Shown here piece after piece: positions 18,787 to 61,617 of a stretch of 64,000 nucleotides of DNA. The notes under the pieces were generated by a model, which worked only from the letters and a program-made list of their open reading frames with translations, ran no database searches and was not told where the DNA came from. The DNA is taken from NCBI GenBank assembly GCA_965223425.1, contig OZ245003.1:1280001-1344000 (forward strand), read 5' to 3'. A program made the translations under genes and the position numbers. This DNA is from Nitrosopumilus sp. (GTDB lineage: Archaea > Thermoproteota > Nitrososphaeria > Nitrososphaerales > Nitrosopumilaceae). Every line of letters begins with the position of its first letter. Position 1 is the first letter of the stretch.

Positions 18787-18935
18787 GAGGGCATAGTCTA
18801 GAGTGGACAAGGCGTTCAGATTCGCAGCTGTAAGATCGTGTGAATTTCTGACATCAATGCAAATAGAGGAAAACAGGTGGACAAGGCGTTCAGATTCGCA
18901 GCTGTAAGATCAGGGTTTAAATTCTTCTCTCACCA
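18787..18935 (+). pseudogene. degenerate tRNA-like sequence (possibly Arg-TCG) interrupted by a duplication plus insert
   Basis: Removing one repeat plus spacer gives GAGGGCATAGTCTAGAGTGGACAAGGCGTTCAGATTCGCAGCTGTAAGATCAGGGTTTAAATTCTTCTCTCACCA, with D-arm, T-loop-like GGTTTAAAT and CCA. Confidence 0.5.
18803..18911. repeat. repeat-spacer-repeat unit A
   Basis: Identical 35-nt GTGGACAAGGCGTTCAGATTCGCAGCTGTAAGATC at 18803-18837 and 18877-18911, with a 39-nt spacer. Confidence 0.95.
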
Positions 18936-19027
18936 TTCCATAGAAGATCCATATTCTAGGTCACCAAGACACACCAGAACCATGTAAGACAAGCTTTAAT
19001 TCCTCAATCAAATCCATTTTTCTAAGT

Positions 19028-19101
19028 GCCGTGGTAGCTCAGCCTGGGAGAGCACTCGGCTGAAGACCGGGCTGTCGCGCGTTCAAATCCCGCCCGCGGC
19101 A
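19028..19101 (+). tRNA. tRNA-Phe (GAA)
   Basis: GCCGTGG/CCGCGGC acceptor stem, anticodon loop CTGAAGA, T-loop GTTCAAATC. Confidence 0.95.
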
Positions 19102-19420
19102 CTTGTTTTATTTCTTGTAATCACAAAAATTGGATTGCCTGTTCAAACGAACAGGTAATTTCTTTTCCATATTATGAATCAAAAGCCTTCTGCTAAATCA
19201 TTTTGACCAGAACGCTTTTTGATCTGCACATCCAACTTTGAACCAGTAACCACAGCGACGGATAAGGCCTTGCAGTACATGCCAGAAACGTACAGAAGTT
19301 TATCGCACGCATCCCTGACATACTCGTCATACGTCTGTCCTCGGCCACGCCGAGACTTGGTGCCATAGAACAATACGGGCATTAGAAAAAGCAAGACATG
19401 CTGGTATCAAGTGTTACGTA

Positions 19421-20546
19421 GTGAATTGGATTAACAATCGCTCACAAAACAGACAACATTATTCAACCACAAGATCTAGATCCCAGTGTATGGCAGAATC
19501 CGCATGAAATACAACGATTCTGCAATACCGGCAGACAAAAGATTCCTGTCCGGCGTCTCCAGTGTGCGCCTGCGCAGCATGCAAAAAAAGGAGACAGATC
19601 CCAGGGCCGCAGCAAGGCTGCTGGCATATGCCATGCGCAAGGAGGGCATGTCCATACGCCGGATATGCATGGCCCTCAACAGGTCATATTCCACAGTACG
19701 GGGCTGGCTTGTGCGCGCCGCACAGCTTGGCACCTACGGCAGGTACGACATCAAAAACAAAGGCGCGCCAAACAAGCTCGATCCGGAACAGACAAAGCAG
19801 CTGCGCGCAGACCTGCTGGCAGGCCCGCGCAGTTGCGGGTTCGAGTCCGGAGTGTGGACGGCACCGCTGCTGGCCGTACACATCAGAAAAAAGTTCGGCG
19901 TGCAGTATGCCACTGTCAGCATATATGACATACTGCACAGGATGGGCTTTTCGTGCAGAAAGCCGCGTCCAAAGCACCCAAGTCAGCCTCAGAATCAGAG
20001 AAAAAAGAGTTTAAAAAAAAGCAGGGGAGATAATCCGGAGCCATCCAGACCATACGGTGATTACAGTTGATGAGGCCTCCTTTATCATTGGGTGGAATAC
20101 CAAGAACGGGTGGTACCTCAAGGGCAAGCCCGTCACCACTCCAGTCAGCCTGTCGCGCAAAAGGTTCTACTCGTTTGGGGCGCTGTACGACGGCGGCTTT
20201 GACTGCAGGTTCTATGCCAAGGCCAACAGCTACAGCTTTGTGGACATGCTCGGACACCTGCATCTCAAGCACGGCAAGATCATCGTCTTTCTTGATAACG
20301 CATCATACCACAAGTCAAAGATGGTCAATGATTTTGTCGACTCGTATGACGGCGACATAGTCCTTGTTTACTTGCCCGTGTACACCCCGGAGCTGAATAC
20401 CACGGAGGGGCAGTGGAGGCTGTTAAGAAGGGCCACTGCAAACGTGATGTATGAAAGCACAAAGGTGATGAAGGAATCCATATGGACAATGCTGGATAGA
20501 CGTGAGGTCAAGATAACAAGAATGAGCGGTTATTTATCCTAGTCAC
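19421..20546 (+). mobile_element. IS630-family element (ORFs 19486-20070 and 20057-20542)
   Basis: Imperfect IRs GTGAATTGGATTAA / GTGACTAGGATAAA flanked by TA; HTH region, then 'VDEA', 'LDNASYH', 'YTPELN.TE'; slippery TTTAAAAAAAAG plus an apparent extra 1-nt loss near 19980. Confidence 0.9.
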
Positions 20547-20725
20547 TACGGCACCTTCGAGTACGTGCGCCGTACGCTTTCTGAATGCCTAAGAACAGCA
20601 AACCGAACTTGATGTGATAAGGTAATATGTCAGCAGAAAGCTTGTCGTTACAGCAGACTTGATTCACACTATATGAGGGCATTTTGAGTAATTCCTAGTG
20701 TTTACTTTAGGTGTTCAGAAATTCA

Positions 20726-21364
20726 CTAATTCACAATAATTTTTCGCATAGGAACAGAGCCAAAATCATTTAGTTTTCTATCCTTTCCCTTATGTTTGAC
20801 TTTACGGTAATTAATTTTCTTGTCATCAAACAACCAGTTTTGAACTGCAACATATGCATTTTCTTCAAACAGTATGCAATCTTCCTTGGCATATTTTGAC
20901 ATTCTAGTACATAGATTCACTGGAATGCCATAAACATCGTCTTCAGTGTTTGTTCTAATCTTCCAAAGTGTTCCAGATGCAATAGTAACCTTTGTTCGTA
21001 TTCCATCCCCGTGTTTTTTCAGATTTCTTATTACTTTGATTGCACATTCACATGCAAGTCCTGATCCTTTGAATGTGACCAATATTGCATCTCCAAGTTC
21101 TTTGATAGCAATTCCATTGTTTCTTTCTACAATATTACGGCAGATTTTGTTATGCAATAGCATTTTAGTTATTGCCGCAATAGGATCACACCTCATCAAT
21201 TTTGTTGATCCTTTTAAATCAAAATGAGCTACGCTGAAAGTCTTTCTTTGTTTCTTAGAAAATTTCTTCTTGGTTTTAAGATTAGCAACAAATTTTTTTG
21301 CCTTAACAATTTCATCTTTGCAAGTACAACTACTAGAACAAGTACATTTCTTTTTGGATTGCAT
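20726..21364 (-). CDS. class III adenylate/guanylate cyclase domain protein with Cys-rich N-terminus
   Basis: 'FDLKGST', 'IKELGDAI', 'DVYGIPVNLCTRM'; N-terminal CTCSSSCTC. Confidence 0.85.
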   Translation of the reverse strand: MQSKKKCTCSSSCTCKDEIVKAKKFVANLKTKKKFSKKQRKTFSVAHFDLKGSTKLMRCDPIAAITKMLLHNKICRNIVERNNGIAIKELGDAILVTFKGSGLACECAIKVIRNLKKHGDGIRTKVTIASGTLWKIRTNTEDDVYGIPVNLCTRMSKYAKEDCILFEENAYVAVQNWLFDDKKINYRKVKHKGKDRKLNDFGSVPMRKIIVN

Positions 21365-21368
21365 TTCT

Positions 21369-21656
21369 TTATGCTGACTTTGGTAAGAGATCTATTTGAA
21401 CTCCAAGAGGAGTTTTTAATTTGACTAAATTTTTTATATTTGCAAGATCTCCTTGAATGGCAAGAGAGTACACTTTAAGATCTTTATTATCACAACCACG
21501 TAGATCTGGTTGGTGATTAATTAGACCCTTTTCTTTTATTGGAGTGCCATCAATAATAATATCAAAATTAGAAGAACATTTCCTAATTTTGTTTACAGCA
21601 ATTTTAACATTAGATTCATTATAACCAGTAAATGCTAATTGAATTTGTTTTTGCAT
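21369..21656 (-). CDS. small protein resembling ribosomal uS10 (divergent paralog)
   Basis: 95 aa from ATG 21656 (the longer ORF call runs into IS DNA); pattern MQK.I.L..G.N....AV..I...G.PI ... I.GD...IK.L.....P.GV.I recalls archaeal uS10. Confidence 0.5.
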   Translation of the reverse strand: MQKQIQLAFTGYNESNVKIAVNKIRKCSSNFDIIIDGTPIKEKGLINHQPDLRGCDNKDLKVYSLAIQGDLANIKNLVKLKTPLGVQIDLLPKSA

Positions 21657-21803
21657 TGTATCTTTCACACTTTTATTTTTGATATGTTTAAAGGTAACTA
21701 TTTGGATTTGTGGAGTTGTGTGGGATTTATTTGTAACAATTCGGATTTCTGGAGTGAATTTTGGGGTGCCGAAAGAGATAAAGATCACGGCTAGAACACA
21801 CAT

Positions 21804-23294
21804 GTGATGCCGGCGGAGTTTGATCCTACCCGCGTAGACTGGGACAACCAAGACACAAACTATCTCTTTAAGCATTTCAAATCAGTGTTTGATCAGGAGA
21901 GAAGAGAGAGAAGGTCGTTGGAAGAAAAAGTCAAGCATCAAGGCGACACAATCAAGCAGCAAAATGACACAATCAGGCAGCTGGAAGAAGAGAACAGGCA
22001 GCTAAGGACAGGATCCACAACCCAAAAGCCGGCCAGGAAGGCAAGAAGCTACAATGTGAGAAAATTCAAGGAATATCCGCGGCCAAAAAGCGACAAAAAT
22101 ACCGGGATGCGCGGCAGGGAACAGAAGACTGACATCCCAGTCACAGACCACAGGGACGCAGACATTTCATATTGTCCCGGATGCGGTCTCAGACTTGCAG
22201 ACAGCAGTGGTACCTATTACGACCGCGACATAACAGACATACAGGACGGCAGGGCGCGCCGCATCAGATGGAGCGTGGCGCGCCGCTACTGCAGGAACTG
22301 TAAAACGTCACACTCCGCACGCATACCCGGCACCCTGTCCGGCTCTCAGTATGGAATCACGATAATCTCCCAGGTAGTGCTGATGCGCTGCATGGGAATA
22401 CCGTTTGAAAAGATAACCGACCTATTTGACATGATACACGGGATACAAATCCCGGGTTCAACGCTGGTCTCCATGTGCGAAAAGGCGGCATGCCAGATGA
22501 GGCCAGTCTACGACGGACTGCTTGCAGGGATGATTCACAGGGCCCGTGCCATATGCGGGGACGAGACCGGATGGTTTCTCAACGGACTGCATTACTGGGT
22601 ATGGGTTCTAGTCTCCGCACACGGCGTGATATACCACATATCATCGACGCGCAGCAAGCAGGTGGCAGAGGCACTGGCAGGTGAGTTTGACGGAACTGTA
22701 GTATCAGACTCGTATCTGGCATGGAGTGACGTAGGCCTGCTGCACCAAAAGTGCCTGCTGCACTATTTCAGGGACATGTACAAGACCCTGGAGGAGAACG
22801 GCAGTAACGAGTTTGCCACATTCTTCAGGAGACTGCACGGCATACTCAGGAATGCCATAGACGCACGGGAAAAGTACGACAGTAATGCGGTTCCAGCAGA
22901 CGTCACACAAAGGCTGCAGGACAGGATAGACGCGCTGGCACGGCAGTCATACGACGATGCGGACTGCCGGAGGTACGCAAAAAGGCTCAAAAGGGAGGGG
23001 GATCAGCTGCTGACGTTTCTGGAGCGCGACGTGGAATACCACAACAACAAAAGCGAGAGGGCCCTGAGGATGTTTGCCACCATGCGCAAGGCCAGCTACG
23101 GCAACAGGTCCGAGAAGGGCATATACATCACAGAGACGCTGGCAAGCATATACGCCACATGCAGGATGCGCGGTGCAAACCCGTACAATTTTATCCTGGA
23201 ATACCTTGAGGGCGGCGGCAGCAGCAGAACCGACGGGATTCCCATGGCCTGTCCGGACAAAACTGCGGCAGTCAAAAAGTGTGTCTGTGCCTAA
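21804..23294 (+). CDS. IS66 TnpC transposase
   Basis: Coiled coil, CPGC...CRNC zinc finger, 'GDETGW', 'VSDSY', 'QKCLLH', 'NNKSERALR'. Confidence 0.92.
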   Translation: MMPAEFDPTRVDWDNQDTNYLFKHFKSVFDQERRERRSLEEKVKHQGDTIKQQNDTIRQLEEENRQLRTGSTTQKPARKARSYNVRKFKEYPRPKSDKNTGMRGREQKTDIPVTDHRDADISYCPGCGLRLADSSGTYYDRDITDIQDGRARRIRWSVARRYCRNCKTSHSARIPGTLSGSQYGITIISQVVLMRCMGIPFEKITDLFDMIHGIQIPGSTLVSMCEKAACQMRPVYDGLLAGMIHRARAICGDETGWFLNGLHYWVWVLVSAHGVIYHISSTRSKQVAEALAGEFDGTVVSDSYLAWSDVGLLHQKCLLHYFRDMYKTLEENGSNEFATFFRRLHGILRNAIDAREKYDSNAVPADVTQRLQDRIDALARQSYDDADCRRYAKRLKREGDQLLTFLERDVEYHNNKSERALRMFATMRKASYGNRSEKGIYITETLASIYATCRMRGANPYNFILEYLEGGGSSRTDGIPMACPDKTAAVKKCVCA

Positions 23295-23384
23295 AACGCC
23301 GCAACATCGCGCACACATGTATGGGGCTGAGCGGCGTTTTTGCCGATTTTGAACTGTCACGGTATAACGGGGCGTGATTTGTCT

Positions 23385-23494
23385 GTCAAAATAAATCCCA
23401 CACAACTCCACAAATCCGAATTAACGTTCTTGTCCTTTCTGACCTCTTTGCCACATGGTCAAAATAAATCCCACACAACTCCACAAATCCGAAT
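23385..23494. repeat. repeat-spacer-repeat unit B inside the IS66 right end
   Basis: Identical 37-nt GTCAAAATAAATCCCACACAACTCCACAAATCCGAAT at 23385-23421 and 23458-23494, with a 36-nt spacer. Confidence 0.95.
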
Positions 23495-23500
23495 AGTTAC

Positions 23501-23616
23501 ATTTATTTTGACAGACAAATCACGCCCCGTTATATCGTGACAGTTCAAAATCGGCAAAAACGCCATCCAGCCCCATACCATGTGTTGATGTTGCGGCGTT
23601 TTAAGCACAGACACAT
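23501..23616 (-). mobile_element. remnant right end of an older, inverted IS66 copy (continues at 21693-21732)
   Basis: Imperfect reverse complement of 23281-23396; joins 21693-21732 through the TSD. Confidence 0.85.
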
Positions 23617-23792
23617 TAGACATTATGCACAATTAACATTATAAAATTTTTTGGCATTTCAGAACAAAATAGACATTAGACTTTATGAACAATTGAATCG
23701 TCAAAATTTTTCCGAAAGATTTAGATCCATTTTGATCGCCGCAACAGGTATGGAATCTCCAGAACAGACGATACGCAGACTGCAAAAAGAGC

Positions 23793-23876
23793 TCAAGCAG
23801 AAGGACAGAGCAATCAAGCAGAAGGACAGAGCAATCAAGCAGAAGGACAGAACAATCAAGCAGAAGGACAGAACAA
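23793..23876 (+). repeat. 21-nt tandem repeat x4 encoding (I/L)KQKDR(A/T) heptads
   Basis: TCAAGCAGAAGGACAGA(G/A)CAA repeated in the transposase N-terminus. Confidence 0.9.
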
Positions 23877-25095
23877 TCAGCAAGCACAACAAGATCATCG
23901 GCTCACTTCGCGAGCAGCTAAGACTTGAAGACAGCCTGTGGAACGTAACCGGAGATGCAGACCGCTTAGAGACTGAGACGGCACTGCTGCACATCAGGGA
24001 GGTGATCCACGGCATACTGCACAACAGCGCAAAGCTTGCGGGAATTACCTCGTATGACCTTGACCAGTTTGACTACACCTGCAACGACTTTGTGGTAGAG
24101 TCAAAGAGGCACAGCAAAGACGCGCCGCTCTTTTCAGAGGACGAAACACCGGATCCAGGAAACCGCTGCCTGCCTGGCCGCAGGTCCGTCCTGCTGCTTG
24201 CGCTGTTCCGCAGGCGCTCAAACGTGACACAGGACGCCCTGGGAGTGCTGTTTGATGTTGACCAGTCCACCGTGTGCAGGTACCTCAAGTTTGCAGATTC
24301 CGTGCTGGCAGGGATCCTGCCTACTGCAGACAGGATGACCCGTCTGGTAAAAAAGGCCGAGACATCAGAGCAGCTAGAGCAGCTAATGCCGGACAGAACC
24401 ATCATAATTGACGGCACCGAGGCGGTGCCAAGGCAGCGTCCGCAGGACAGGGATAAAAGAAAAGACACGTACTCTGGCAAAAAGAAGCGCTTTACGATTA
24501 ACACCACCATAACAACAAACAGGGCAGGGCCTGATACCTGCAGCAGGCAGGTCCTTTGAGGGCGGGACGCACGACCTTACCATGATAAGAGAGGATCCGA
24601 TAGACTTTGGCAAGTGGTCTGAATCCATGATGTACAAAAAAGACACCCCGGAAAAGGACAGGATACGGGTACTTGTAGACAAGGGATACCAGGGATGCCA
24701 ATCACTACGCGGGAATAGCACTTGAGATGCCGGAAAAAAAGAAGCCACGGGCGGAGCTGACACAGCAACAAAAGGACTCCAACAAAAGGATCAGTGCCAA
24801 GAGGGTAAAGGTGGAGCACTCCATTGGAAGAATAAAGCAGTGGGCAAGGATGACAGACCCGTACGACGGCACGGTAGAGGAGTTTCACGAGGAGCTGGTT
24901 GTGTGTACCGGCCTTGCGAACTTTGGTTTGCTGTGGGATGCAAAAAGAAAGCGGCCGTCACTTGATTGTTGATGTATGATACGGGGTGCATGATGCACTG
25001 GAATGGTGCGCACACGTGCGCTTGAATTCTCCCGGATCTGTTGAGTGATCGTATATTTTGTGCCAGACGGGGTTATTTTTTGGACCTGTCTTTGC

Positions 25096-25203
25096 ATCTT
25101 GATGGCTTGCGCCGTAGAAAAAAAAATTTGACGTCATTTACAGAGGGGCTGATAGCAGAGGGAGAAAATCCCGATGGCTTGCGCCGTAGAAAAAAAATTT
25201 GAC
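25096..25203. repeat. repeat-spacer-repeat unit C near the IS5-like right end
   Basis: GATGGCTTGCGCCGTAG(A9/A8)TTTGAC at 25101-25132 and 25173-25203; extends to about 37 nt with ATCTT/ATCCC; 35-40 nt spacer. Confidence 0.9.
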
Positions 25204-25338
25204 TGGTCAATTATGCATAATGTCTAGTATGTCATGATTTGACATACTGGACTAAATGATCGCAATTAGGCTTATTTTATAAAAAAATCATTCTACATAA
25301 TCTTTAAAAGTTACCATGACTTTTGATTTTCGACATTC

Positions 25339-25644
25339 ATGGCTAGAAAAAAAGCTGGAAAAAAGGTTGTAAAAAAGACTGGAAAAAAGGTTGTAAAAAA
25401 GACTGTAAAAAAAGCTGGAAAAAAGGTTGTAAAAAAATCACCTACAAAGAAAACGACAGATAAAACAACAAAGAGTAAAACCGCCAAATCAAAAAAGACA
25501 AAAAATAAAAAAATAAAGGATGAGCCCTTTGATGACATGAGTATTGTTATAGTCGATGATGATATTGAAATTGACCAAGAAAAGGTTAACGAAGAAAGAA
25601 GGGCATACCTAGAAGAAGCAAGATCTCAAGAGGCATCTGACTAA
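25339..25644 (+). CDS. Lys-rich histone-H1-like protein with acidic C-terminus
   Basis: Repeated GKKVVKK motifs followed by a D/E-rich tail. Confidence 0.75.
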   Translation: MARKKAGKKVVKKTGKKVVKKTVKKAGKKVVKKSPTKKTTDKTTKSKTAKSKKTKNKKIKDEPFDDMSIVIVDDDIEIDQEKVNEERRAYLEEARSQEASD

Positions 25645-25676
25645 ATCTTTATCAAATCCGACTACATACACTACTC

Positions 25677-25916
25677 ATGCGTGCATTATGTTTAATCATG
25701 GTAAAACCGGGAAAGATTGATTCTGTTGTTCAAATTTTAAAGAAAAAGCGTAAGGTCATAAAACAGATAATGGTAGTCACAGGAAGAGCAGACATTAGTG
25801 TAATTTTACAAGGAAATATTGACGAGCTTAACAATATGGTGATTGATTTTAAAAAAATAAAAGATATTGTTGCTACTGAAACACTAATTGAAGTAGAGGT
25901 GAATCTGGGTTGGTAA
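25677..25916 (+). CDS. Lrp/AsnC ligand-binding domain protein
   Basis: 'VTGRADI' and 'TETLI' RAM-domain pattern. Confidence 0.8.
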   Translation: MRALCLIMVKPGKIDSVVQILKKKRKVIKQIMVVTGRADISVILQGNIDELNNMVIDFKKIKDIVATETLIEVEVNLGW

Positions 25917-28525: not shown

Positions 28526-28532
28526 TTTTTCC

Positions 28533-32707: not shown

Positions 32708-33871
32708 ATGAACCTGATTGCTATGATGGCAAAAATACTTGGAATTATTGGAGGCGGCCAACTTGGAATGATGATTACAGAAGCTGCAAAGACAATGCCT
32801 GAACACATATCAAAAGTCATCGTACTGGATCCAACTGAAGGCTGCCCTGCCGCACAAGTCGGCGCTGAGCAAATTATTGCAGATTTCAAGGACAAGGAGG
32901 CAATCGAGGATTTGGCCAATAAATCAGATATAATCACCTATGAAATTGAGTCTGGCAATAGTGATGTTTTAAAATCTGTTGAAAAAAATGCAGAGATAGA
33001 ACCTTCTCCTGAAACCCTAAAGACTATTCAAGACAAGTTTTTACAAAAGACTTTCTTGTCAGAAAACAGAATCCCGGTTCCAAAGTTTGTTGAAATTGAT
33101 ACAATTGAAGATGTCAAAAATGGACTAAATGACTTTGGATATCCTGCATTACTAAAAGCAAGAAGAGGCGCTTACGATGGCAGAGGTAACTTTAAAATCA
33201 ATTCTGAAAATGAAATCCAAAAAGCGTTTGATTATTTTCAAGGCCAGGCTTTGCTGTTGGAAAAATTTGTTCCGTTTGTCATGGAGGTATCGGTAATCGC
33301 GTCACGAAACACTAAAGGCCAAATTAAGACATATCCGCTAGTTGAAAACATACATGAAGAAAATATTTTACGGGAAACGATAGCTCCGGCCAGAGTTACA
33401 GAAGAAATTACAAGAAAAGCTGAGAAAATTGCCGAGGAAACAATGATGGTTCTCAAGGGTGCGGGAGTTTTTGGAATCGAGATGTTTGTCACTCAAGAAA
33501 ATGACATACTAATTAATGAAATTGCTCCCAGAGTTCACAATTCCGGCCATCACACGCTACAGTCCAGCGAAACATCTCAGTTTGAACAACATTTGCGAGC
33601 AATTTTAGGGTTAGATCTTGGAAGTACAAAACTCATCCACAGCGCAATTATGTACAATATTTTGGGAACAAAAGGGTTTGAAGGTGAATATAGATCGCTT
33701 GATATTTCAAACGACAATTTATTTTTAAAAATGTACGGTAAAAAAATTTCAAAACCATTGAGAAAGATGGGACATCTAAACTTAGTTGGAACGCAGGGGG
33801 AATCCATTGATCAGCTGTTGCAAAAATTAGAGGCCATTAAAGAAAAAACAGTGGTTCAACCTGCTGATTAG
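32708..33871 (+). CDS. purK: N5-CAIR synthetase
   Basis: 'GGGQLGMM', 'YDGRG', 'NEIAPRVHNSGH', 'RKMGH'. Confidence 0.95.
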   Translation: MNLIAMMAKILGIIGGGQLGMMITEAAKTMPEHISKVIVLDPTEGCPAAQVGAEQIIADFKDKEAIEDLANKSDIITYEIESGNSDVLKSVEKNAEIEPSPETLKTIQDKFLQKTFLSENRIPVPKFVEIDTIEDVKNGLNDFGYPALLKARRGAYDGRGNFKINSENEIQKAFDYFQGQALLLEKFVPFVMEVSVIASRNTKGQIKTYPLVENIHEENILRETIAPARVTEEITRKAEKIAEETMMVLKGAGVFGIEMFVTQENDILINEIAPRVHNSGHHTLQSSETSQFEQHLRAILGLDLGSTKLIHSAIMYNILGTKGFEGEYRSLDISNDNLFLKMYGKKISKPLRKMGHLNLVGTQGESIDQLLQKLEAIKEKTVVQPAD

Positions 33872-42539: not shown

Positions 42540-43908
42540 CAGTAGTTCCCAGATGTAGATTTACCGCAACCGCAACCGGCATCGGTTCTACTTGCCTCGA
42601 TCATTGACAAACAACTCGTTTCTGCTTGTAATGTACACGATAAACAACGCCATGGTGAGTTTTTTTCCCGCAGAAGACACTCTTCCATGCCTCTTTCCCG
42701 CATCAAGGCAGAACCTGGCAATCCTCCACAGGTTGTACAGCAGCAGCGGCAGGTAAAACATCAGCAGCCTCACAGACAGGGAGTTGCTGCATGTCCTGCC
42801 CATGATCTCCTTTATGACGCGAAACCCCGTCTCGATGCCCCATCTCTTGCGGTACTGCTCCGGTATGATGCCTGTCATGGCTCTGGCGCTCCTGATGGGA
42901 ATGTTTGTTGCAAACGCAATGTATTGCTCCTCCCCCTCCTCTTCCCCCTCCCCCTTTTTCTTCTTCTTCCTGTCTCTTTTGACAATTACAAGGTTGTAGG
43001 TCACAGTTACGCCGTCTTTGTTGGTCATTGACTGCTGCGATACCTGGCTTGCCTTTCCGTCCTTGTACATCTTGACTATCCTCTTGATCTTGGAGTTCAT
43101 GATGACAGGCATAATGTAGCGGCACCCGCCCTTTCCTGCCTCTGTCATGCAGTCAACGTTGTAAAAGGCGCGGTCGTACAGGAACACAGTCTTTGAGTGT
43201 GCGCCCCCTCTGAGGATTTTCGTGCGTGTTTTGGCTATAAAATCGGCCAGTTTTTCCTTTGCCGGTAGTAGCTTCGATTCCAGGACAATCTGCGAGGAGT
43301 CCCTGCCGACTCCGTGCACTGCGACATACGAGAGAAACGTGGATGTTCCTGCCCTTGGACGCGACTTTCTTGTATGCCCCTGCAGCTGCTCCCCATGGTA
43401 TGGTATGTCCGTAACGTCTATTGCAATGGCGTCGATGTCCTGCAGCATTCCTGTATGGCGGGCGTGCCGCACCGTGCGTGCTAATGTCTTTGCACACCAG
43501 GCCTGCACGTCTGCCGGTTTGACGCCACGGACTGCAGACATGACCAGGTCTGCATCAGGCGTACGTGCACCCGTGTCTTGAAGCCTGTTGTGCCGTACGA
43601 GGGATTCTACAAACGTGTTTCTCTCAGACGCCTTGATTAGCACGTCCAGTATGTCATTGCATCCGTATACGGCGTTGTGCCTCTCAGACATTGGCATGCC
43701 AAGCTTTTGAAACGACGAGCGCAGGATTTTAAACCGGTTTGATGTTATATTGTACTGGCGTGCGATCAGTTCGTCATGTAATTCGACTTTCATGACATAT
43801 TGCACGCCGTAGCCTAATCTGGATCTTTGCATTGCAGTTATGCGGTAACGCACCGGCATCTGGGCATAAACCTACATCTGGGCACAAATCTACATCTGGG
43901 AACTACTG
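42540..43908 (-). mobile_element. ISH3-like insertion sequence
   Basis: IR CAGTAGTTCCCAGATGTAGATTT at both ends; 4-bp TSD ATGT; three CATCTGGG subterminal repeats at 43857-43900. Confidence 0.9.
42588..43859 (-). CDS. ISH3-like DDE transposase
   Basis: 'AIDVTDIPYHG', 'YDRAFY', 'YRKRWGIETGFR'; true start may lie downstream. Confidence 0.9.
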   Translation of the reverse strand: MPVRYRITAMQRSRLGYGVQYVMKVELHDELIARQYNITSNRFKILRSSFQKLGMPMSERHNAVYGCNDILDVLIKASERNTFVESLVRHNRLQDTGARTPDADLVMSAVRGVKPADVQAWCAKTLARTVRHARHTGMLQDIDAIAIDVTDIPYHGEQLQGHTRKSRPRAGTSTFLSYVAVHGVGRDSSQIVLESKLLPAKEKLADFIAKTRTKILRGGAHSKTVFLYDRAFYNVDCMTEAGKGGCRYIMPVIMNSKIKRIVKMYKDGKASQVSQQSMTNKDGVTVTYNLVIVKRDRKKKKKGEGEEEGEEQYIAFATNIPIRSARAMTGIIPEQYRKRWGIETGFRVIKEIMGRTCSNSLSVRLLMFYLPLLLYNLWRIARFCLDAGKRHGRVSSAGKKLTMALFIVYITSRNELFVNDRGK

Positions 43909-52233: not shown

Positions 52234-52527
52234 GTAACAGCTCGCGTTTTTGAAGCGATTTGAGGCAGTACATAGTCTGTTGCATAACCATGCCCTAAAC
52301 TAGTAAAAACAACGAGGATTTTTGTACTTGAAATTGAAGTTATGTAACAGACTAACAAGCAGTACACATCTGACTAACAAGCAGTACACATCTGCAGGAT
52401 CGTCGGGTCTTCTTCTGTGGTTTTGAATCAGGACGCCATCACATGACTGACGGAATTCCCTGATGACGAACTGGGATCTTTGATGTCAGTAGGACTTCTA
52501 GGCAACTTCAAAAACGCGATCAGTTAC
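52234..52527. mobile_element. MITE or internally deleted element with IS66-type ends
   Basis: IRs GTAACAGCTCGCGTTTTTGAAG / GTAACTGATCGCGTTTTTGAAG; no long ORF; internal 22-nt tandem duplication 52350-52393. Confidence 0.7.
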
Positions 52528-52922: not shown

Positions 52923-52996
52923 GGGGTTGTCGCCAAATTCACATCAAGCTGCCACCACCGGGGTTGTCGCCAAATTCACATCAAGCTGCCACCACC
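52923..52996. repeat. exact 37-nt tandem duplication of the IS terminus
   Basis: GGGGTTGTCGCCAAATTCACATCAAGCTGCCACCACC at 52923-52959 and 52960-52996. Confidence 0.95.
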
Positions 52997-54355: not shown

Positions 54356-55568
54356 ACCGTGTTGCATAACTCGGCCTGATCACATCCCGTTCGTCCCAGG
54401 ATCCATGCACTTGCTCCCCTACATTGCTGCTGCCACCCACCGGTTGTACATGGCAATCCTCACCCTTGCCTCTCTTACCATGCTCTCCCATTTGCGTGAG
54501 AGCAGATGCTCTCCGAACATCCGCTTGAATGCGGAGATGATTGCCCCTATTCTCCACCTTTTGCCGTACCCTACAGTCGACTTCCAGTATCTTCTGTTCT
54601 CCTTTTTCTGTTCCACTGTCCGTCCCTTGACGTGCATGTCTGCGCTGCCTCCCAGCTGCTCTTTCACGGCCCGGTTCCACGCCTTGCCGTCATCGCCCCT
54701 GCCGCTCTCAGTAAAGCACGGTTTGAGGGGCACAAGCGGCTCGATGCCCTTCCTCCTGCACGCATTCATGTTTTTCTTGGAGGCATATGCGCAGTCTGCA
54801 AGCAGGCTGGCACTTGGCACTTCTTCTTCTTCTTCTTCCTTGCCGCCTGCCGAACCGGCAAGCGGAGAGACTCCGTCTGCAAGCATGTTTGGCCTCCTTC
54901 TCGCATCGTCCTTCCCGGTCTTGGCAAACGGTTCGGCTGCTGCCTGATCCGGCAGATCCCGCAGTACCGGCGAGTCGCCGGTTCTGTCGTCTGTGACTAC
55001 GGCAGCCAGTATCATGCCGGTGTCCGCATCTGCCAGCAGGTGCATCTTGACATACCCCCTGCGCACCACCACCTTCCACTTGTCGCGTATCCGTTCTCCG
55101 CGGTTCCACTGTCTGAGTCCGGTGGCATCGGCCACCAGGGTTACGTGCCGGGATGCATCATGAACGTATATGGCGTTGCCGTGAATGCTAATGTCAAATT
55201 TCTCCATTCTTCTGCACACGTGGTATGGTGCGGCAAGTCGTGTCCCTCAAGCATCTTGTCTGCCATCCCGGACAGCTGCCTGAATGGAACGCCGAGGGCG
55301 GTTCTCAGTGCGGCTGTCATGTGATCATGGTGTCTGCATACTGGAACTGGGCCCCCTCCTCCTTGCCGCAGTTGGCCTGCCTTACCTCGCAGCTCCAGTC
55401 AGGGTTGTACTGCACTACCAGCTCTGCACCACGCCGTACGTACTTTGCATTATCGGTCAACACTTGGAGCATGCTGTCATGATCTAAAGCTTTTTCGGTC
55501 AGAAACATGTGTGTTTGTTGGTCAGTTTAAACTGCGTGGCAGATTTTAGGCGTGTTGTGCAACAAGCT
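54356..55568 (-). mobile_element. degenerate IS5-family (IS903-like) element
   Basis: 'DATGL', 'RRGYVKMHL', 'LADCAY', 'WKSTVGYGKRW'; ends TGTTGCA(T/C)AAC; N-terminus frameshifted. Confidence 0.8.
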
Positions 55569-55623
55569 ACCATACGATCCTGGAGGCCCGGGATAGGGAC
55601 ACATTTCCATGTACTGAACAAGC

Positions 55624-55758
55624 ATGGCAATCCAATGGGAAATCAAGACATAAACCAAATTCAAAAAACAATACAAAATTCTTGCTTCTCAAACCAAGCA
55701 AAGTATAAATCAAGCAATACAAGAACTAAGAAACTCTGAAAACCCCACTAGATTGGGA
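55624..55758 (+). pseudogene. possible N-terminal remnant of a RelE-type toxin
   Basis: Manual translation MAIQWEIKT*TKFKKQYKILASQTKQSINQAIQELRNSENPTRLG. Confidence 0.45.
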
Positions 55759-55821
55759 GGTGACTTTGTACCAAAATTTTCGGAAGATAGATTAACCTCG
55801 ATTTCAATCTACAAATTATTA

Positions 55822-56082
55822 ATGCCTGCTTTTAACGTACATGTAACCATTGAAAATAAAACCGGTATTAGTGATCCTGAGGGAGATACCATTTTGAATG
55901 ATCTAGTTCTAAAAGGAACACACAAAACAATTTCAAAAATTAAAACTGCAAAAATGCTAAAATTCACAATCAAAGAAAAAGACACTAAAGCCGCTCAATC
56001 AAAAGTACAAGAGGTTTGTGATGAACTGCGAATATACAATCCCATGGTAAGCAAAGTGTCTTTTGTTTGCTATAAAGCATGA
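55822..56082 (+). CDS. purS: FGAM synthase subunit PurS
   Basis: 'ISDPEG.TI' and 'YNP' motifs; ATG at 55822; upstream of purQL. Confidence 0.88.
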   Translation: MPAFNVHVTIENKTGISDPEGDTILNDLVLKGTHKTISKIKTAKMLKFTIKEKDTKAAQSKVQEVCDELRIYNPMVSKVSFVCYKA

Positions 56083-56587
56083 TTGCTCTTAGAATGGTGA
56101 ACTTGTCCCAATCTGTTCCTTCTAGCCAACAGTAGTTCTGTGGCCCTTCCTTGCCTGTTCTGCCCTCTGCCTCTTCTTTACTCTTCAAGCCCCTTTCTTC
56201 TTGTAATTCCATTTCTGTCTCAGTGAATACTTTTTCAATTGCACTCATCTGGCATTTGCCAATTTTTTTGCAGTTGGGCCAGTAACACAAGCAGCCTCAC
56301 CTGACATGCATTCCATTAATGTACATCCTAATTACAAACGGCATCTTTGGCAGAAACCCCACCTGCCATCTGTTTTCTTGTAGAAACAACTTCTGCAAAT
56401 GACATTGCAGGTATGATTCCTTTGATGGAATTAACGCTAAAACGAAAACTTTCACAAAAATCCTTGCAGTTTACATAAACAAAGCAATGCCTGTTTAATC
56501 TTTGAGTCAAATAGCGCATAAATTTCCTCAGAGATCGCTTGTTTTTGACCCGATTCAAATTAAATATCGCCGAGTGTAATTACACTT

Positions 56588-57268
56588 GTGAAGGTTGGAG
56601 TTGTAGTTTTTCCTGGCAGTAATTGCGATCGTGACATGTACCATGTTTTAACTGATGTCTTTAACCTTGACGCACAATATTATTGGCATGAAAAACCTCT
56701 CCCAAAAAACATTGATGCTGTAATACTTCCCGGTGGATTCTCTTATGGGGATAGGTTAAGAGCTGGTGTGATTGCCGCTCACAGCCCAATTATTAAAGAC
56801 GTACAAAAAATGGCAGAAAAAGGAATTCCGATTTTAGGCGTATGCAATGGGTTTCAAATTCTTGTAGAATCTGGATTGCTTCCTGGAGTTTTACTCAAAA
56901 ATGAATCCCTTAACTTTATGTGCGAGTGGACAAATCTGGTTGTTGAAAACAACAAGACACCATTTACGAACCAATTCAAACTACATGAAAAAATTCCCAT
57001 TCCTATCGCAAATGGTGAGGGACGGTACTATGTTGATGATGACACACTAGAACAATTACAGAAAAAAAACCAAGTTGTATTTAGATATGGCCAAGTTGTA
57101 AACGGGTCTTCAAACAGAATTGCAGGTGTTTGCAATCCTGACGGCAATGTTGTTGGCATGATGCCTCATCCAGAAAGAGCAGTCGAGTCTGAAATCAACC
57201 CCGTTGATAACAAGCCCGCTTCTTTAATTTTTGAATCTTTGCTGACAAAAATAGGTGTTAGCAATTGA
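56588..57268 (+). CDS. purQ: FGAM synthase glutaminase subunit
   Basis: 'FPGSNCD', 'PGGFSYGD', 'GVCNGFQ', 'MMPHPER'. Confidence 0.95.
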   Translation: MKVGVVVFPGSNCDRDMYHVLTDVFNLDAQYYWHEKPLPKNIDAVILPGGFSYGDRLRAGVIAAHSPIIKDVQKMAEKGIPILGVCNGFQILVESGLLPGVLLKNESLNFMCEWTNLVVENNKTPFTNQFKLHEKIPIPIANGEGRYYVDDDTLEQLQKKNQVVFRYGQVVNGSSNRIAGVCNPDGNVVGMMPHPERAVESEINPVDNKPASLIFESLLTKIGVSN

Positions 57269-59430
57269 GTTTAGAGTCTCAAGAACTATCTGAATTAAAA
57301 TCAAAAATTGGCAGAAATCCAACTTCGACTGAGCTACAGATTGTAGCTGCAGAATGGTCTGAGCACTGTTCATACAAATCATCAAAAAAACATCTCAAAA
57401 TGCTTCCTATGAAGGGACCCCTTGTGATTCATGAGAAAGGATATGACTCTGGCGTGTTAGATGTCGGTAACGGATATGTCGTTACTGCGCATATTGAGAG
57501 TCATAATCATCCATCAGCTGTTGAACCGTATGGCGGCGCTGCAACCGGGGTGGGCGGTGTCATTCGAGATATCTTGTCTGCGGGAACGCGACCGATTGCA
57601 ATACTTGATGGGCTACGTTTTGGAAACATAGAAAGAGATCAACAAGCAAGATGGCTTTTCAAAAATGCAGTTACGGGAATCGCAGATTATGGAAATTGTT
57701 TAGGCATTCCAACAGTTGGCGGTGAGGTTGAATTTGACGATTGTTATCAAAACTATGCGCTAGTTGATGTTGCAGCAGTTGGATTTGGAAAAAAAGAGAA
57801 CATGATAAAAAACCATGCAAAGAAAGGGGATTTGGTGATTCTGCTTGGAGGCCCTACTGGAAGAGATGGGATGGGAGGCTCGCAGTTTGCATCTGATTCT
57901 TTAGAGTCTGAGGATCGCTCTGCCGTGCAAATACCTGACCCGTTCATTGAGAAACTAATTATTGAAGCTATTCTGGAGGCTAGAAACCATAAGCTGATTC
58001 ATGCCATGAAAGATCTTGGAGGGGGAGGCCTTTCGTGTGCAGTTTCAGAGACTGCAGACGCGTTAGAGGTTGGAATAGAGATGGATGTTGACATGGTTCA
58101 TACCCGCGAATCAAGCATGCGTCCAGATGAAATCATGGTGTCTGAATCACAAGAAAGAATGCTAATTATCACAAGTAAACCTAAATTAAAAAAATTACAA
58201 GAAATTTGCAAAAAATTCCGCATTGCATGCTCTGTCATTGGCAAAGTAAAATCAGATAATAGCATGCACGTAACAAAAGGCAAAAAGATATTTGCGCATC
58301 TTCCAACTGATGTGGTGGCAAATGCCACTCTTCTGGATTTGCCTTCCAAAAAACCCGTTTACCTGGATGGGATCGAAAAAGAAAAAAGCCTCAAAACTGT
58401 TTCTGATTATTCTAAAACAATGATGAGATTACTTGCCTCCCCAAATATAGCAAGCAAGATCTGGGTTTATGGCCAATATGATCACGAGGTAGGAATCAGA
58501 ACTGTTGTAAAACCTGGACATGATGCGTCTGTTTTACGGCTAGACAACGGGAAATTTCTTTCTGTAAAAATTGATGGAAATCCAAAACAGTGCTACATCA
58601 ACCCACGGGAAGGCGCAATAGGCTGCTTTGAGGAGGCATGTAGAAACGTTGTCTGTACTGGTGCAAAACCAATCGGCATGCTTGATCACCTCCAATTTGG
58701 AAATCCAAAAGACCCTGAAATTTTCTGGACGTTCTTAGAGTCCTTGAAAGGGCTGGCCGATTTTGCAAAAGACACGAAAATACCGTGTGTTGGAGGCAAG
58801 GTTAGCCTGTATAACGAAACTCCGATTGGACCAATAAAACCGACTCCTCTAATTGGCGTACTGGGACTAATTGACAAAAGGCCACTTGTGCCTCAAAAGA
58901 TTGCAGAAGGTGACTGTCTAGTAATTGTTGGAGATACCAAAGACGAGATGGGCGGTTCTGAGTATTTTGAATATGTGCATAAATTCATTGGAGGAAAGTG
59001 CCCTTCTGTTAATTTTGTTGAATCAAAGAAAAATATGAACGCAGTTTTGGATTCCGTAAAGAATCAATTGCTAAAATCTGCCCATGATTGCTCAAAAGGC
59101 GGGCTGGCAATCGCCGTATCTGAGCTTTGTATGACAAATAAAATTGGTTGCAAGGTGTCCCTTGGTAAAATTCCTGGAGAAAAACTTGCCGAAGATAGAC
59201 TGTTGTTTTCTGAAAGCCATTCTCGCTATCTGTTAACTGTAAGCAAAAAGAATCTCAAAAAACTAGAGACATTACTCAAAAGGAACAAAGTCTCATTTGG
59301 TCAAATCAGTCAGTTTAAAGGAGAAAAAATTCAGTTTGTAAAGGGAACAAAACCTGTTATTGATCTAAGCGTTGATAAGGCGCAAAAAACCTGGTTAAGC
59401 TCGTTAAGGGATTTGGTGCTTCATGGTTAA
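57265..59430 (+). CDS. purL: FGAM synthase subunit PurL
   Basis: 'WSEHCSYKSS', 'ESHNHPS', 'SESQERM', 'GGKVSLYN'. Confidence 0.95.
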   Translation: MSLESQELSELKSKIGRNPTSTELQIVAAEWSEHCSYKSSKKHLKMLPMKGPLVIHEKGYDSGVLDVGNGYVVTAHIESHNHPSAVEPYGGAATGVGGVIRDILSAGTRPIAILDGLRFGNIERDQQARWLFKNAVTGIADYGNCLGIPTVGGEVEFDDCYQNYALVDVAAVGFGKKENMIKNHAKKGDLVILLGGPTGRDGMGGSQFASDSLESEDRSAVQIPDPFIEKLIIEAILEARNHKLIHAMKDLGGGGLSCAVSETADALEVGIEMDVDMVHTRESSMRPDEIMVSESQERMLIITSKPKLKKLQEICKKFRIACSVIGKVKSDNSMHVTKGKKIFAHLPTDVVANATLLDLPSKKPVYLDGIEKEKSLKTVSDYSKTMMRLLASPNIASKIWVYGQYDHEVGIRTVVKPGHDASVLRLDNGKFLSVKIDGNPKQCYINPREGAIGCFEEACRNVVCTGAKPIGMLDHLQFGNPKDPEIFWTFLESLKGLADFAKDTKIPCVGGKVSLYNETPIGPIKPTPLIGVLGLIDKRPLVPQKIAEGDCLVIVGDTKDEMGGSEYFEYVHKFIGGKCPSVNFVESKKNMNAVLDSVKNQLLKSAHDCSKGGLAIAVSELCMTNKIGCKVSLGKIPGEKLAEDRLLFSESHSRYLLTVSKKNLKKLETLLKRNKVSFGQISQFKGEKIQFVKGTKPVIDLSVDKAQKTWLSSLRDLVLHG

Positions 59431-60856
59431 AGAAAATTGCGGCGTAGTTGGAATCTACAGTCTAAGCGGTACTAATGTCGTTCCAATGGTAATTGATGCG
59501 CTACGCGCACTACAGCATAGGGGCCAGGAAGCATGGGGTCTTGCTGTTCCAAACAAACCTCCCCTAAAAAGACTGGGACTAGTCTCAGCAGCATCATCGG
59601 AATTTAAAAAAATTGCAGAAGACTATGCATCTCCTGCTGTAATTGGGCACGTGCGATATTCTACAATTGGGAAAAGCTCGCTTGAAAACGCACAGCCCCT
59701 AAAAGTAAAGGATCTCTGCATTGCTCATAATGGAACAATTGCAAATGTTCAAGAGTTATCAAACCTCGTGGGGGGGTGTTCATTTACACCTCAAAACGCA
59801 AGTGACACGCTTGTTGCAGCACAAAGACTTGTCTCGTTAATTTCTGAAAAGGGACAAATGGGAAAGGCACTCTCAGTTCTGAAAAACGAGATGGTTGGCT
59901 CTTACTGTTTTACATTTATCTCCGATGACGGCTCTGTTTATGCTGCACGTGATCCAAAAGGGTTCCGTCCAATGGTTCTAGGACACAAAGAGACAGACGA
60001 TACCTTCATTGTTGCATCTGAATCCTCTGCATTATCTGCAGTGGGTGCCAAGTTAGAGCGAAATGTAAATCCTGGTGAACTAATCAGACTGAGCCAGGAC
60101 GGGTTAGAGACAGAACGGTTCTCCGATGATCCTGCGCGCGCGCATTGCTCTTTTGAGTTCACTTATTTTGCGCATCCGTCAAGTAACATGGAGGGAGCTA
60201 ACATCTATGTCGCAAGAAAAAATATTGGCAAGTTTTTGGCAAAAAAATTCCCTATACCTGATGCTGATTTAGTAATACCCGTGCCAGATTCTGCAAGGCC
60301 TGCTGCACTTGGATATGCTCAAGAGCTTGGCGTATCCTTTGACGAGGGATTACTCAAAGACAGATACAGCAAAAAAGGGCCATTACGAAGTTTCATCGAG
60401 CCGCATCAAACTGACAGAGTCGAAATCAACAGATGGATTATACCCATCCGAGAAATAATTGAGGGAAGGCACGTTGTCGTAATTGATGATAGTTTAGTTA
60501 GAGGAACCAGCTCAAAGGCCATAATCAAGGCTTTACGTCGAGCAGGCGCTAGAAAAATTAGCATGGTGATCACATATCCCCCAATCAAGTTCCCATGCTA
60601 TGCTGGGATTGATTTTCCTTCCCAAGAAGAGCTTGCAACCTTTTCAAATGGAAAAGACATGACCCAAGACGAAACTACTGAGATGATCCGACAGAGTATC
60701 GGTGCTGACTTTTTAGGATACAATGATGCTGAAAATCTTGCAGCAGCTGTTGGAATCCCCACGGATTCTATGTGTTTTACATGTTCATCAGGCAACTATG
60801 AATCACTTGGAATTGTCCCGAAATTTAGAAGCAGAGAAGAGATGAAAGGCGAATAG
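59423..60856 (+). CDS. purF: amidophosphoribosyltransferase
   Basis: N-terminal 'CG', 'QHRGQE', 'GHVRYST', 'DDSLVRGT'. Confidence 0.95.
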   Translation: MVKENCGVVGIYSLSGTNVVPMVIDALRALQHRGQEAWGLAVPNKPPLKRLGLVSAASSEFKKIAEDYASPAVIGHVRYSTIGKSSLENAQPLKVKDLCIAHNGTIANVQELSNLVGGCSFTPQNASDTLVAAQRLVSLISEKGQMGKALSVLKNEMVGSYCFTFISDDGSVYAARDPKGFRPMVLGHKETDDTFIVASESSALSAVGAKLERNVNPGELIRLSQDGLETERFSDDPARAHCSFEFTYFAHPSSNMEGANIYVARKNIGKFLAKKFPIPDADLVIPVPDSARPAALGYAQELGVSFDEGLLKDRYSKKGPLRSFIEPHQTDRVEINRWIIPIREIIEGRHVVVIDDSLVRGTSSKAIIKALRRAGARKISMVITYPPIKFPCYAGIDFPSQEELATFSNGKDMTQDETTEMIRQSIGADFLGYNDAENLAAAVGIPTDSMCFTCSSGNYESLGIVPKFRSREEMKGE

Positions 60857-60858
60857 TC

Positions 60859-61152
60859 GTGCAAGCCATTTGGAATGATGTTGTAATTGCTGAAAGTGAT
60901 AATACAGTTGTAGTTGAGGGAAACCATTATTTTCCATTTGACTCGATAAAACAGGAATATTTTCAAAAAACTGATTTGACTTCTTTTTGCGGCTGGAAGG
61001 GAACAGCAAATTACTATTCAGTCACCGTTAATGGAAAAACCAACAAGGACTGTGCATGGTACTATGCAGAACCAAATGACGCTGCCATGAAAATCAAAGG
61101 AATGGTGGCTTTTTGGAATGGTGTTACAGTAAAGCCTTCCCAGAAGCACTAA
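60859..61152 (+). CDS. DUF427 family protein
   Basis: 'VIAESD....EGNHYFP', 'C.WKG.A.YY', 'AWYY.EP'. Confidence 0.88.
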   Translation: MQAIWNDVVIAESDNTVVVEGNHYFPFDSIKQEYFQKTDLTSFCGWKGTANYYSVTVNGKTNKDCAWYYAEPNDAAMKIKGMVAFWNGVTVKPSQKH

Positions 61153-61214
61153 ATTTTCCTCTGAACTGTAACCCGTAATTCGTGATTCTACAGATTCTGG
61201 ACGTGTGTGATTCT

Positions 61215-61324
61215 TTGTAGTAGAAAGTTTCCCCTCTTGGTAATTTCTACTTGCCATATCCAGATTTACAGTTCCAGAGGGGGGAGAATTGTAGTAGAAA
61301 GTTTCCCCTCTTGGTAATTTCTAC
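61215..61324. repeat. repeat-spacer-repeat unit D
   Basis: Identical 36-nt TTGTAGTAGAAAGTTTCCCCTCTTGGTAATTTCTAC at 61215-61250 and 61289-61324, with a 38-nt spacer. Confidence 0.95.
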
Positions 61325-61501
61325 GAAGTACTTCTGGGAAGACTACTGAAAACGCAAACTATATTATCAAACCTTTTCATAGCCATATATTGGAAAATAA
61401 TTCGTCTGCCAGAGTAGGCGTCTCTAGTCTAATAAATTACATGGATGCAAGCTGTTGTTGTTGTTGTTGTTGCCATGCGTCAAAATTATCTGCCTCCTTT
61501 C

Positions 61502-61617
61502 TGCACGTAACCTTTGATACTCCGCCCGCGGGGGGGGGGGACTCCAACTGCACCTTAAACGTCAGCATGGTCATGGCATGCACGTAACCTTTGATACTCC
61601 GCCCGCGGGGGGGGGGG
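61502..61617. repeat. repeat-spacer-repeat unit E
   Basis: TGCACGTAACCTTTGATACTCCGCCCGC(G11) at 61502-61540 and 61579-61617; 38-nt spacer matches 29740-29777. Confidence 0.95.

Follow-up and report, generated by a model that had tools for sequence, protein, structure and literature searches.

Off-target integration by Cas1-Cas2, the adaptation proteins of CRISPR systems (named for their clusters of regularly interspaced short palindromic repeats), is known from Escherichia coli overexpressing the type I-E proteins, in which 'neo-CRISPR' repeat-spacer-repeat units were reportedly formed from local DNA (Nivala, Shipman & Church 2018, Nat Microbiol 3:310); evidence for neo-CRISPR in two other species is called circumstantial in a passage citing this work. 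Units of the same build were recognized within a window of 64,000 nt on a chromosome of Nitrosopumilus sp. (G000:C1:1280001-1344000, contig OZ245003.1), and apparently a total of about 26-29 such units is carried by the chromosome of this 2.64-Mb, two-contig genome (G000; 41% G+C). Its archaeal origin is evident from a full-length archaeal small-subunit rRNA match (1460 bits) and from the encoded PolD, Cdc6/Orc1 and TFB, and the closest named relatives of its Cas1 are metagenome-assembled genomes titled Nitrosopumilus sp. As judged from their geometry, empty sites and insert origins, the units are probably scars left when a Cas1-Cas2 adaptation module integrated spacers ectopically, the resident type I-B module being the likeliest writer. 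As in neo-CRISPR, a spacer-length fragment stands at a non-array site, a repeat-length target is duplicated, and the 'repeat' is local DNA. The difference from the E. coli units is that the present ones reside in a natural archaeal chromosome with a type I-B system, are fixed at about 26-29 sites with different ages and are mostly self-derived; some are in frame within genes or copied with insertion sequences (IS), and none has grown into an array.

Off-target integration in vitro by archaeal and bacterial Cas1-Cas2 was observed in plasmid assays (Grainy et al. 2019, PMC6698737; Kim et al. 2019, PMC6895254), in which non-CRISPR sites were used, guided by short motifs like the leader-repeat junction, with a repeat-length ruler; in G000 the only counterpart detected is a preference for GT(NNAA) at one repeat end, with no leader-like motif. 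The naive adaptation of Pyrococcus furiosus by Cas1, Cas2 and Cas4 is also similar: 96-99% of newly acquired unique spacers are chromosomal, spacers are 36-38 nt long, and hot spots are located at oriC, CRISPR loci, rRNA/tRNA genes and active transposons (Shiimori et al. 2017, PMC5737086). Those spacers, however, were detected in canonical arrays by deep sequencing of cultures, whereas the present inserts occupy ectopic sites of a finished genome, and the CCN protospacer-adjacent motif (PAM) given there has no clear counterpart in G000. The 'ectopic spacer acquisition' of Streptococcus type II-A systems (PMC7999890, PMC5338259) likewise places a spacer away from the leader-proximal repeat, but those events take place inside the array at true repeats, while the G000 scars lie in arbitrary genomic DNA. 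The first-pass annotation of the window had left room for an undescribed phenomenon; this does not hold for off-target integration as such, for which an experimental description exists already (Nivala et al. 2018). No earlier description of a natural genome with dozens of such scars was found in the literature searched, subscription journals being largely outside its scope. G000 is thus an unusually rich natural case of known off-target integration and not a new kind of system.

The five loci reported for the window by the first-pass annotation, A to E, were all recovered as repeat pairs by a repeat finder, with mutually unrelated repeats and start-to-start spacings of 74, 73, 72, 74 and 77 nt, respectively. 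Unit A (18803-18911, + strand) consists of a 35-nt repeat of 100% identity (18803-18837 and 18877-18911), beginning with GTGGAC, around an insert of 39 nt (18838-18876); no protospacer was found in its own genome, in viral_contigs or in metagenome_contigs, and no paralog representing an empty site in its own genome. Unit A is located in a stretch of about 870 nt (18115-18986) between the cobalamin adenosyltransferase gene and tRNA-Phe, which are directly adjacent without this stretch in at least 10 relatives, and the stretch may be the remnant of an element integrated at tRNA-Phe. The proposal that repeat A is a dead tRNA was not borne out, Rfam at E<=10 giving only the intact tRNA-Phe at 19028-19102. 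Unit B (23385-23494, + strand) has an insert of 36 nt (23422-23457) between two identical 37-nt repeats (23385-23421 and 23458-23494; 100%) that begin with GTCAAA, and is located at the end of an IS66-family element as had been suggested, 90 nt downstream of the transposase open reading frame (ORF) at 21804-23294. The source of its insert was not found in its own genome, viral_contigs or 100 genomes of the genus.

Unit C (25100-25203, - strand) was at first called as 33-nt repeats of 91% identity (25096-25128 and 25168-25200) and, with a one-base difference in poly-A length, was refined to repeats at about 25100-25132 and 25172-25203 and an insert of 39 nt at about 25133-25171. On the - strand its repeat begins with GTCAAA. 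It lies downstream of a DDE_Tnp_4 (IS5-like) fragment, in line with the suggested IS5-like end, and its repeats, slightly diverged, mark it as an older unit. Unit D (61215-61324, - strand) carries a 36-nt repeat of 100% identity (61215-61250 and 61289-61324), which begins with GTAGAA on the - strand, and an insert of 38 nt (61251-61288). In unit E (61502-61617, no strand assigned) an insert of 38 nt (61541-61578) is flanked by a 39-nt repeat of 100% identity (61502-61540 and 61579-61617), the borders being uncertain by a few bases because the repeat ends in a G11 run. The claim that four of the five repeats start with GT was thus confirmed (+ strand for A and B, - strand for C and D, neither for E).

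The genome-wide scan of repeat periods proposed in the first-pass annotation gave a sharp peak at 71-77 nt. When direct repeats were collected at a tolerance of >=27/30 identity for periods of 55-99 nt, with the CRISPR arrays and short tandem repeats left out, a total of 36 hits was obtained at 71-77 nt (3 at 71, 16 at 72, 6 at 73, 7 at 74, 3 at 75 and 1 at 77) against 11 at 55-70 nt and 2 at 78-99 nt, an excess well beyond chance. Exact repeats showed a peak at repeat 35-39 and gap 30-39 nt (93 pairs), the majority of which belong to the two CRISPR arrays and about 18 of which are isolated. Curation removed seven of the 36 raw hits, namely two double calls (1271796 and 1722813), two extra copies of unit C (252317 and 532092) and three coding or tandem repeats (1552041, 1552325 and 1736939), leaving 29 distinct units, all on contig C1 (units outside the window are named below by C1 position). 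Perfect repeats of 34-39 nt with inserts of 34-39 nt are present in 18 units, and 26 are backed by a perfect repeat, an identified source, an empty site or a combination of these; the units at 1706813, 1708740 and 1722817 are of low confidence because they have no perfect repeat, full protospacer or empty site. Mismatches between the two repeat copies range from 0 to 3, that is, a range of ages is represented. The density of about one unit per 13 kb noted before applies to the window, which is a hot spot, but not to the whole genome, where it is about one per 90 kb.

Whether DNA had been inserted was apparent from other copies of multicopy elements, which served as empty sites. For 11 distinct units, paralogs were found in which the left flank, a single repeat copy and the right flank are contiguous without an insert. 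Unit 2466831 has 35 such sites (overlap 38 nt), one of which lies in the window at 42585-42931 (C1:1322585-1322931), and unit 105005 has 21 (36 nt in the six listed). For unit D there are 11 (mostly 36 nt), for unit 1565091 10 (37-38 nt), for unit 275652 five (37 nt), for unit 311394 three (36 nt), and for units 280165 and 1951916 one each, while unit E has a single one at C1:711752-712084 (39 nt). Unit B is represented by one full empty site plus seven left-side matches (37 nt), and in four paralogous element ends aligned to it the single repeat copy is followed by AGTTAC with no insert. The element carrying unit C is empty at C1:1752672, 1966023 and 2260286 and filled at C1:252317 and 532092 in addition to the window, thus three empty and three filled copies; the filled state of two further copies indicates that the carrier element took the unit with it when it was copied. 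The nucleotide identity of relatives, 64-78%, is too low for orthologous empty sites to be recognized. From these alignments each unit appears to be an insertion accompanied by target duplication.

Most of the inserts came from elsewhere in the chromosome. Distant loci matching over 33-39 nt at 89-100% identity, with unrelated flanks, were identified for 16 of the 29 inserts, and one more insert has a partial match of 23 nt only; for A, B, C and nine other units no source was detectable in the own genome. The insert of unit D corresponds to C1:1886434-1886469 (36 nt at 100%, or 35 nt with the insert alone as query; flanks unrelated) and that of unit E to a 10-copy element at 94-97% identity. 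The window itself contains two protospacers, one at 15643-15676 (34 nt, 97%) for unit C1:1271799, located 8.2 kb upstream of the window, and the other at 32836-32868 (33 nt, 94%) for unit C1:1951916. Template switching from adjacent DNA, which the first-pass annotation had named as the origin that would speak against an integrase, is rejected, the sources being distant loci. Among 13 single-copy sources, four fall at C1:141958-174134, within 33 kb around cdc6/polD (Poisson P=5e-4 for an interval chosen post hoc): one in polD, one at most 60 nt upstream of the cdc6/orc1 ORF, one in a TFB gene and one intergenic. This region is likely oriC. Four more sources are found no farther than 65 kb from the CRISPR-cas locus (P=7e-3); a further three belong to multicopy elements. 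In the canonical arrays, only one of 79 spacers has a full-length match in the own genome. This spacer (C1:1362329-1362362, array 1, third from the cas-proximal end) matches C1:198216-198249 at 34/34, with flanks ...gcagta and ataatt..., neither side being TTC-like.

In agreement with the first-pass annotation, no cas gene is present in the window; cas4-cas2-cas1 are located 18.6-20.5 kb beyond its end. Array 1 (C1:1357299-1362540), which starts 13.3 kb beyond the window end, is composed of 74 identical 36-nt repeats and 73 spacers of 34-38 nt (22 of 34, 21 of 35, 17 of 36, 11 of 37 and 2 of 38 nt; mean 35.3). It is adjoined by cas4, cas2, cas1 and a cas6b fragment, followed on the opposite strand by a 557-aa ORF without family match in the position of cas8b, and by cas7, cas5, cas3 and cas6b. 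Cas1 of this locus is a 331-aa protein (216 bits), and Cas4 retains the four Fe-S cysteines and the D..ExK motif in an alignment with two relatives. By gene content the locus is classified as type I-B with a predicted intact adaptation module. Array 2, with seven repeats of another 36-nt sequence and spacers of 35-38 nt (mean about 36.7), is found within a region resembling an integrative and conjugative element (ICE-like region, C1:1676000-1692000) together with TraG/VirD4-like, HerA-like, TBP and MmeI-type restriction-modification genes, with no cas1 nearby. A second adaptation module at C1:1379849-1380392 retains an intact Cas2, but of its Cas1 only a C-terminal stub, which covers the final 66 positions of the model and adjoins a DDE_Tnp_1 transposase. 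A solitary canonical repeat was not found elsewhere in G000.

The geometry of the ectopic units is that of the resident arrays, and the check for cas1, cas2, cas4 and a canonical array thus led to an intact I-B module beside an array of equal dimensions. The direct repeats of 34-39 nt match the canonical repeat length of 36 nt, with empty-site overlaps of 36-39 nt, and the inserts of 34-39 nt match the range of resident spacers (34-38 nt in array 1, 35-38 nt in array 2). When both strands of the 29 units are counted, 13 of the 58 5' ends of repeats carry GT, where about 5% would be expected (P=7e-6). The canonical repeat of array 1 has GT at both ends (GT...AC), whereas that of array 2 starts with AT... 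and, on the reverse strand, with GC.... Among the GT-oriented repeats, A predominates at positions 5-6, which is also the case in the canonical GTCTAAAAG end; this is our own reading and does not amount to an independent test. The previously proposed integrase with a ruler of about 36 nt, inserting fragments of about 36-38 nt off-array, is supported by the period peak, the empty sites and the distant insert sources.

Other sources of paired repeats were considered and rejected. Coding tandem repeats, such as BspA-like leucine-rich repeats of 24-25 residues, do not account for the 29 retained units, in which the whole period is not homologous between copies. Insertions of IS elements, miniature inverted-repeat transposable elements or casposons carry a conserved element with defined ends and a short target-site duplication, typically of 2-15 bp; here the inserts are all different and of scattered chromosomal origin, and the duplication is about 36 nt. 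The units are not canonical CRISPR arrays either: every unit has its own repeat, in none of the 29 was a third repeat copy or second spacer found, and none of the repeats is within 8 mismatches of either canonical repeat.

Based on the chemistry of Cas1-Cas2, the following course is proposed. Cas1-Cas2 loaded with a prespacer of about 34-38 nt would attack ordinary DNA at two phosphodiester bonds, on opposite strands and about 36 nt from each other, one of the attacks, in about half of the cases, being at a site that begins with 5'-GT(NNAA) as does the canonical repeat. Gap repair would then duplicate the 36-nt target on either side of the insert. Most prespacers would be taken from the own chromosome, that is, from the origin region, the CRISPR locus and transposons, where naive adaptation samples. 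In a real array such self-spacers would be lost to autoimmunity, but the 'repeats' flanking an ectopic insert are arbitrary sequence and not an expected Cas6b substrate, so that the scars should be neutral and persist. Survival would be preferential in IS and other repeated DNA, or as in-frame inserts of 24-25 codons in genes.

Several observations weigh against this explanation. No more than about half of the units have the GT end, and upstream of the units a leader-like motif was not found. The ectopic inserts are on average about 1.4 nt longer than the spacers of array 1. A C stands 5' of the perfectly matching part of the protospacer in about half of 16 cases (hand reading of alignments, not a computed count), and the opposite flank is mildly A/T-rich; no PAM is shown by these data. 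Mismatches to the source are in excess at one insert end: in 13 units whose borders are well defined, they affect 12 of 39 cases over the first three positions of that end, compared with 3/39 at the other end and 13/407 at internal positions (Fisher P=8e-8). Finally, G002, a single-contig genome of 99% completeness chosen as the negative control, yielded no Cas1, Cas2 or Cas7 upon search and still holds at least two clean units (36/37 and 35/38 for repeat/insert, period 73) in the 400 kb sampled; this is the chief objection to a simple interpretation.

The one-sided terminal mismatch may be examined further from the same pairs. Border uncertainty in three diverged units could explain part of the excess; with these three left out, five of ten units still have exactly one such mismatch. 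At all seven positions checked by eye, the bases outside the terminal mismatch still match the source. Position 2 of the insert of unit E is C in the unit and T in all ten source copies; all ten copies disagree with the unit, and therefore the change is on the insert side. The possibility of escape mutations in the target is rejected for unit E on the same ground, namely the agreement of all 10 source copies against the unit. The source base at or next to the mismatch point is often C (TCC, TTC, CTC and similar), which faintly hints at a partly retained TTC-like PAM. Of the 13 asymmetric cases, 11 have the mismatch-rich end on one and the same assembly strand (P~0.02, own count and calculation). 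The canonical spacers provided no PAM reference from outside: array 1 had no match in a phage collection and, in 80 other genomes of the genus, matched only other arrays and short partial sequences, and the cores of spacers 73 and 72 had no match in viral_contigs, nor did spacer 70 in metagenome_contigs.

Comparable units are present in relatives. The array of G077, which has 157 repeats, shares the repeat family of the G000 array; its most frequent spacer length is 35 nt, and cas1, cas2 and cas7 are located beside it. In 2.0 of the 2.21 Mb of G077, four to five comparable units were detected with periods of 70-73, matching this spacer length. Other period-72/75 hits in G077 are mostly BspA-like coding repeats, and many hits in G002 are also coding tandem repeats. 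The 156 spacers of G077 gave only partial matches of <=24 nt in G077 and G000. A 40-nt segment of G077 (C1:1362547-1362586), 150 kb from its array, shares 95% identity with a portion of a repeat-spacer junction in the G000 array and may be a solitary repeat. In G002, four copies of a multicopy element match one insert over 38 nt at 100%, and a paralog of the target carries the repeat only once. The units of G002 require either loss of cas after integration or an integrase acting in trans; loss is reasonable because Cas1 occurs unevenly in the genus (51 of 101 genomes, including many fragments) and because G007 keeps arrays without cas1, cas2 and cas7, its orphan arrays belonging to the G000 repeat family and these genes being not detected. 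The repeat of array 2 was sought in G002, G007, G077 and G083, and nothing was found, in a search without positive control. G211, G044 and G202 encode several full-length Cas1 homologues of 410-450 aa, three copies per genome, as would be expected for casposases of casposons; none of these is present in G000.

The writer could be another Cas1-Cas2, either the second module at C1:1379849-1380392 or one provided in trans by a mobile element or virus. This is unlikely, even though a cas2 is present there beside the IS-cut cas1 remnant, the spacers of array 2 with their mean of about 36.7 fit the ectopic inserts better than those of array 1 (35.3), seven units are 24-48 kb from array 2, and cas-less G002 has units: the ectopic GT starts agree with both ends of the array-1 repeat and not with the AT... 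and GC... ends of array 2, six units lie just upstream of array 1, and G077 with only an array-1-type system still has units. A poorer chance is given to a writer other than the resident module in the form of an unrecognised or trans-supplied integrase with a ruler of about 36 nt, which would be active across the genus including cas-less genomes and would continuously paste pieces of about 36 nt from replicating or broken DNA into the chromosome, the one-sided terminal mismatch being its end-processing footprint. A process independent of Cas altogether, by an unrecognised integrase with such a ruler or by repair that pastes templated fragments between staggered breaks, and common to genomes of the genus with and without cas, is very doubtful. 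The fresh-looking units of G002, in which Cas1, Cas2 and Cas7 were undetectable, the absence of a demonstrated PAM and the odd terminal mismatches would suit it; but duplication and insert lengths equal the resident CRISPR geometry in both G000 and G077, including the shorter periods of the latter, the source hot spots match those of naive adaptation, and cas loss is common in the genus, as in G007 with its arrays. Insertion of 35-nt fragments together with duplication of a repeat-length stretch is, to our knowledge, not known from any other enzyme.

The first-pass annotation had offered two readings, a promiscuous adaptation module or a distributed guide/memory system, and only the former stood. 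It is favoured because the geometry equals that of the type I-B array and an intact cas1-cas2-cas4 lies beside it. A functional dispersed guide or memory system of transcribed single-spacer mini-arrays might be read from the CRISPR-like geometry and the persistence of many perfect units, but it is highly improbable and finds no support because there is no third repeat and no repeat like the canonical one that Cas6b would require, and most inserts are self-derived. Furthermore, every repeat is different from the others with none within 8 mismatches of the canonical repeats, no second spacer has been gained, most inserts would target essential regions of the own genome (polD, TFB, upstream of cdc6), and the units are in ORFs and IS elements in either orientation. 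An assembly or sequencing artefact is practically negligible as an explanation. Nothing specific speaks for it other than that Logan unitigs break inside the repeats: Logan contigs from independent runs carry the first repeat, the insert and part of the second repeat of D and E, and none spans a whole unit plus both flanks. These contigs nevertheless reproduce both units without differences (run X6 record 24 = 61156-61306 for unit D, run X5 record 19 = 61502-61608 for unit E, 0 differences each); in addition, the units are of various ages, unit C has been copied into three loci, and units are present in two other assemblies. Ectopic integration by the resident type I-B adaptation module thus stays the preferred reading of the G000 units.

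Under ectopic integration by this module, the distribution of the units in the chromosome would reflect where scars persist. In 13 of the 29 units a flank is in repeated DNA, compared with about 20% of the genome being repeated. Upstream of array 1, six units fall within 90 kb, and five of these belong to the window; the seven units close to array 2 are gathered in 25 kb of the ICE-like region. Periods divisible by three are found in 14 of 29 units (P=0.003 against array 1, in which 17 of 73 periods are 72 nt; P=0.07 against one third). The earlier statement that all units lie in non-essential DNA does not apply genome-wide, several being in-frame inserts in long ORFs, for example ORFs of 1117 aa (helicase-like), 437 aa and 417 aa. 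When the helicase-like ORF is aligned with distant homologues of 27-38% identity, the alignments are interrupted around the insert, at residues 511-552, which is suggestive only.

Other repeated features were noted in the window. A perfect 37-nt tandem duplication without insert is located at 52923-52996, and a perfect 22-nt one at 52350-52393, 530 nt upstream; the 37-nt duplication, equal in length to the ectopic ruler, could be due to spacer-less repair of a staggered cut or to plain slippage. Runs of 9-11 G are present in the repeat of unit E and in three canonical spacers of array 1, and G14 in the empty paralog of unit E; such runs may mark a family of elements upstream of genes for LVIVD-repeat surface proteins. 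A 186-nt (62-codon) tandem repeat of about 6.6 copies extends over 61824-63042 in a large ORF that has weak LVIVD-repeat matches and continues beyond the end of the window. Coding tandem repeats of 21 nt (TCAAGCAGAAGGACAGAACAA and variants) are located at 23793-23879, at 21931-21981 and at many other C1 loci, here in an ORF with HTH_Tnp_4/DDE_Tnp_4 domains.

The natural frequency and cost of off-target integration are little documented, the process having been shown mainly with overexpressed E. coli Cas1-Cas2, and G000 preserves dozens of events. Since array spacers are filtered by autoimmunity and the scars are not, the latter would record what a type I-B system captures, mostly self DNA of the origin region, the CRISPR locus and transposons. 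Target rules, ruler length and the end processing of prespacers can be read from about 29 natural target sites and 16 pairs of source and insert. CRISPR adaptation would in addition act as a mutagen, by which 24-25 codons are added to proteins and marked IS elements spread the scar, and the scars would be natural raw material for the birth of new arrays. With units present also in a cas-less relative, such scars could be fossils of lost CRISPR systems.

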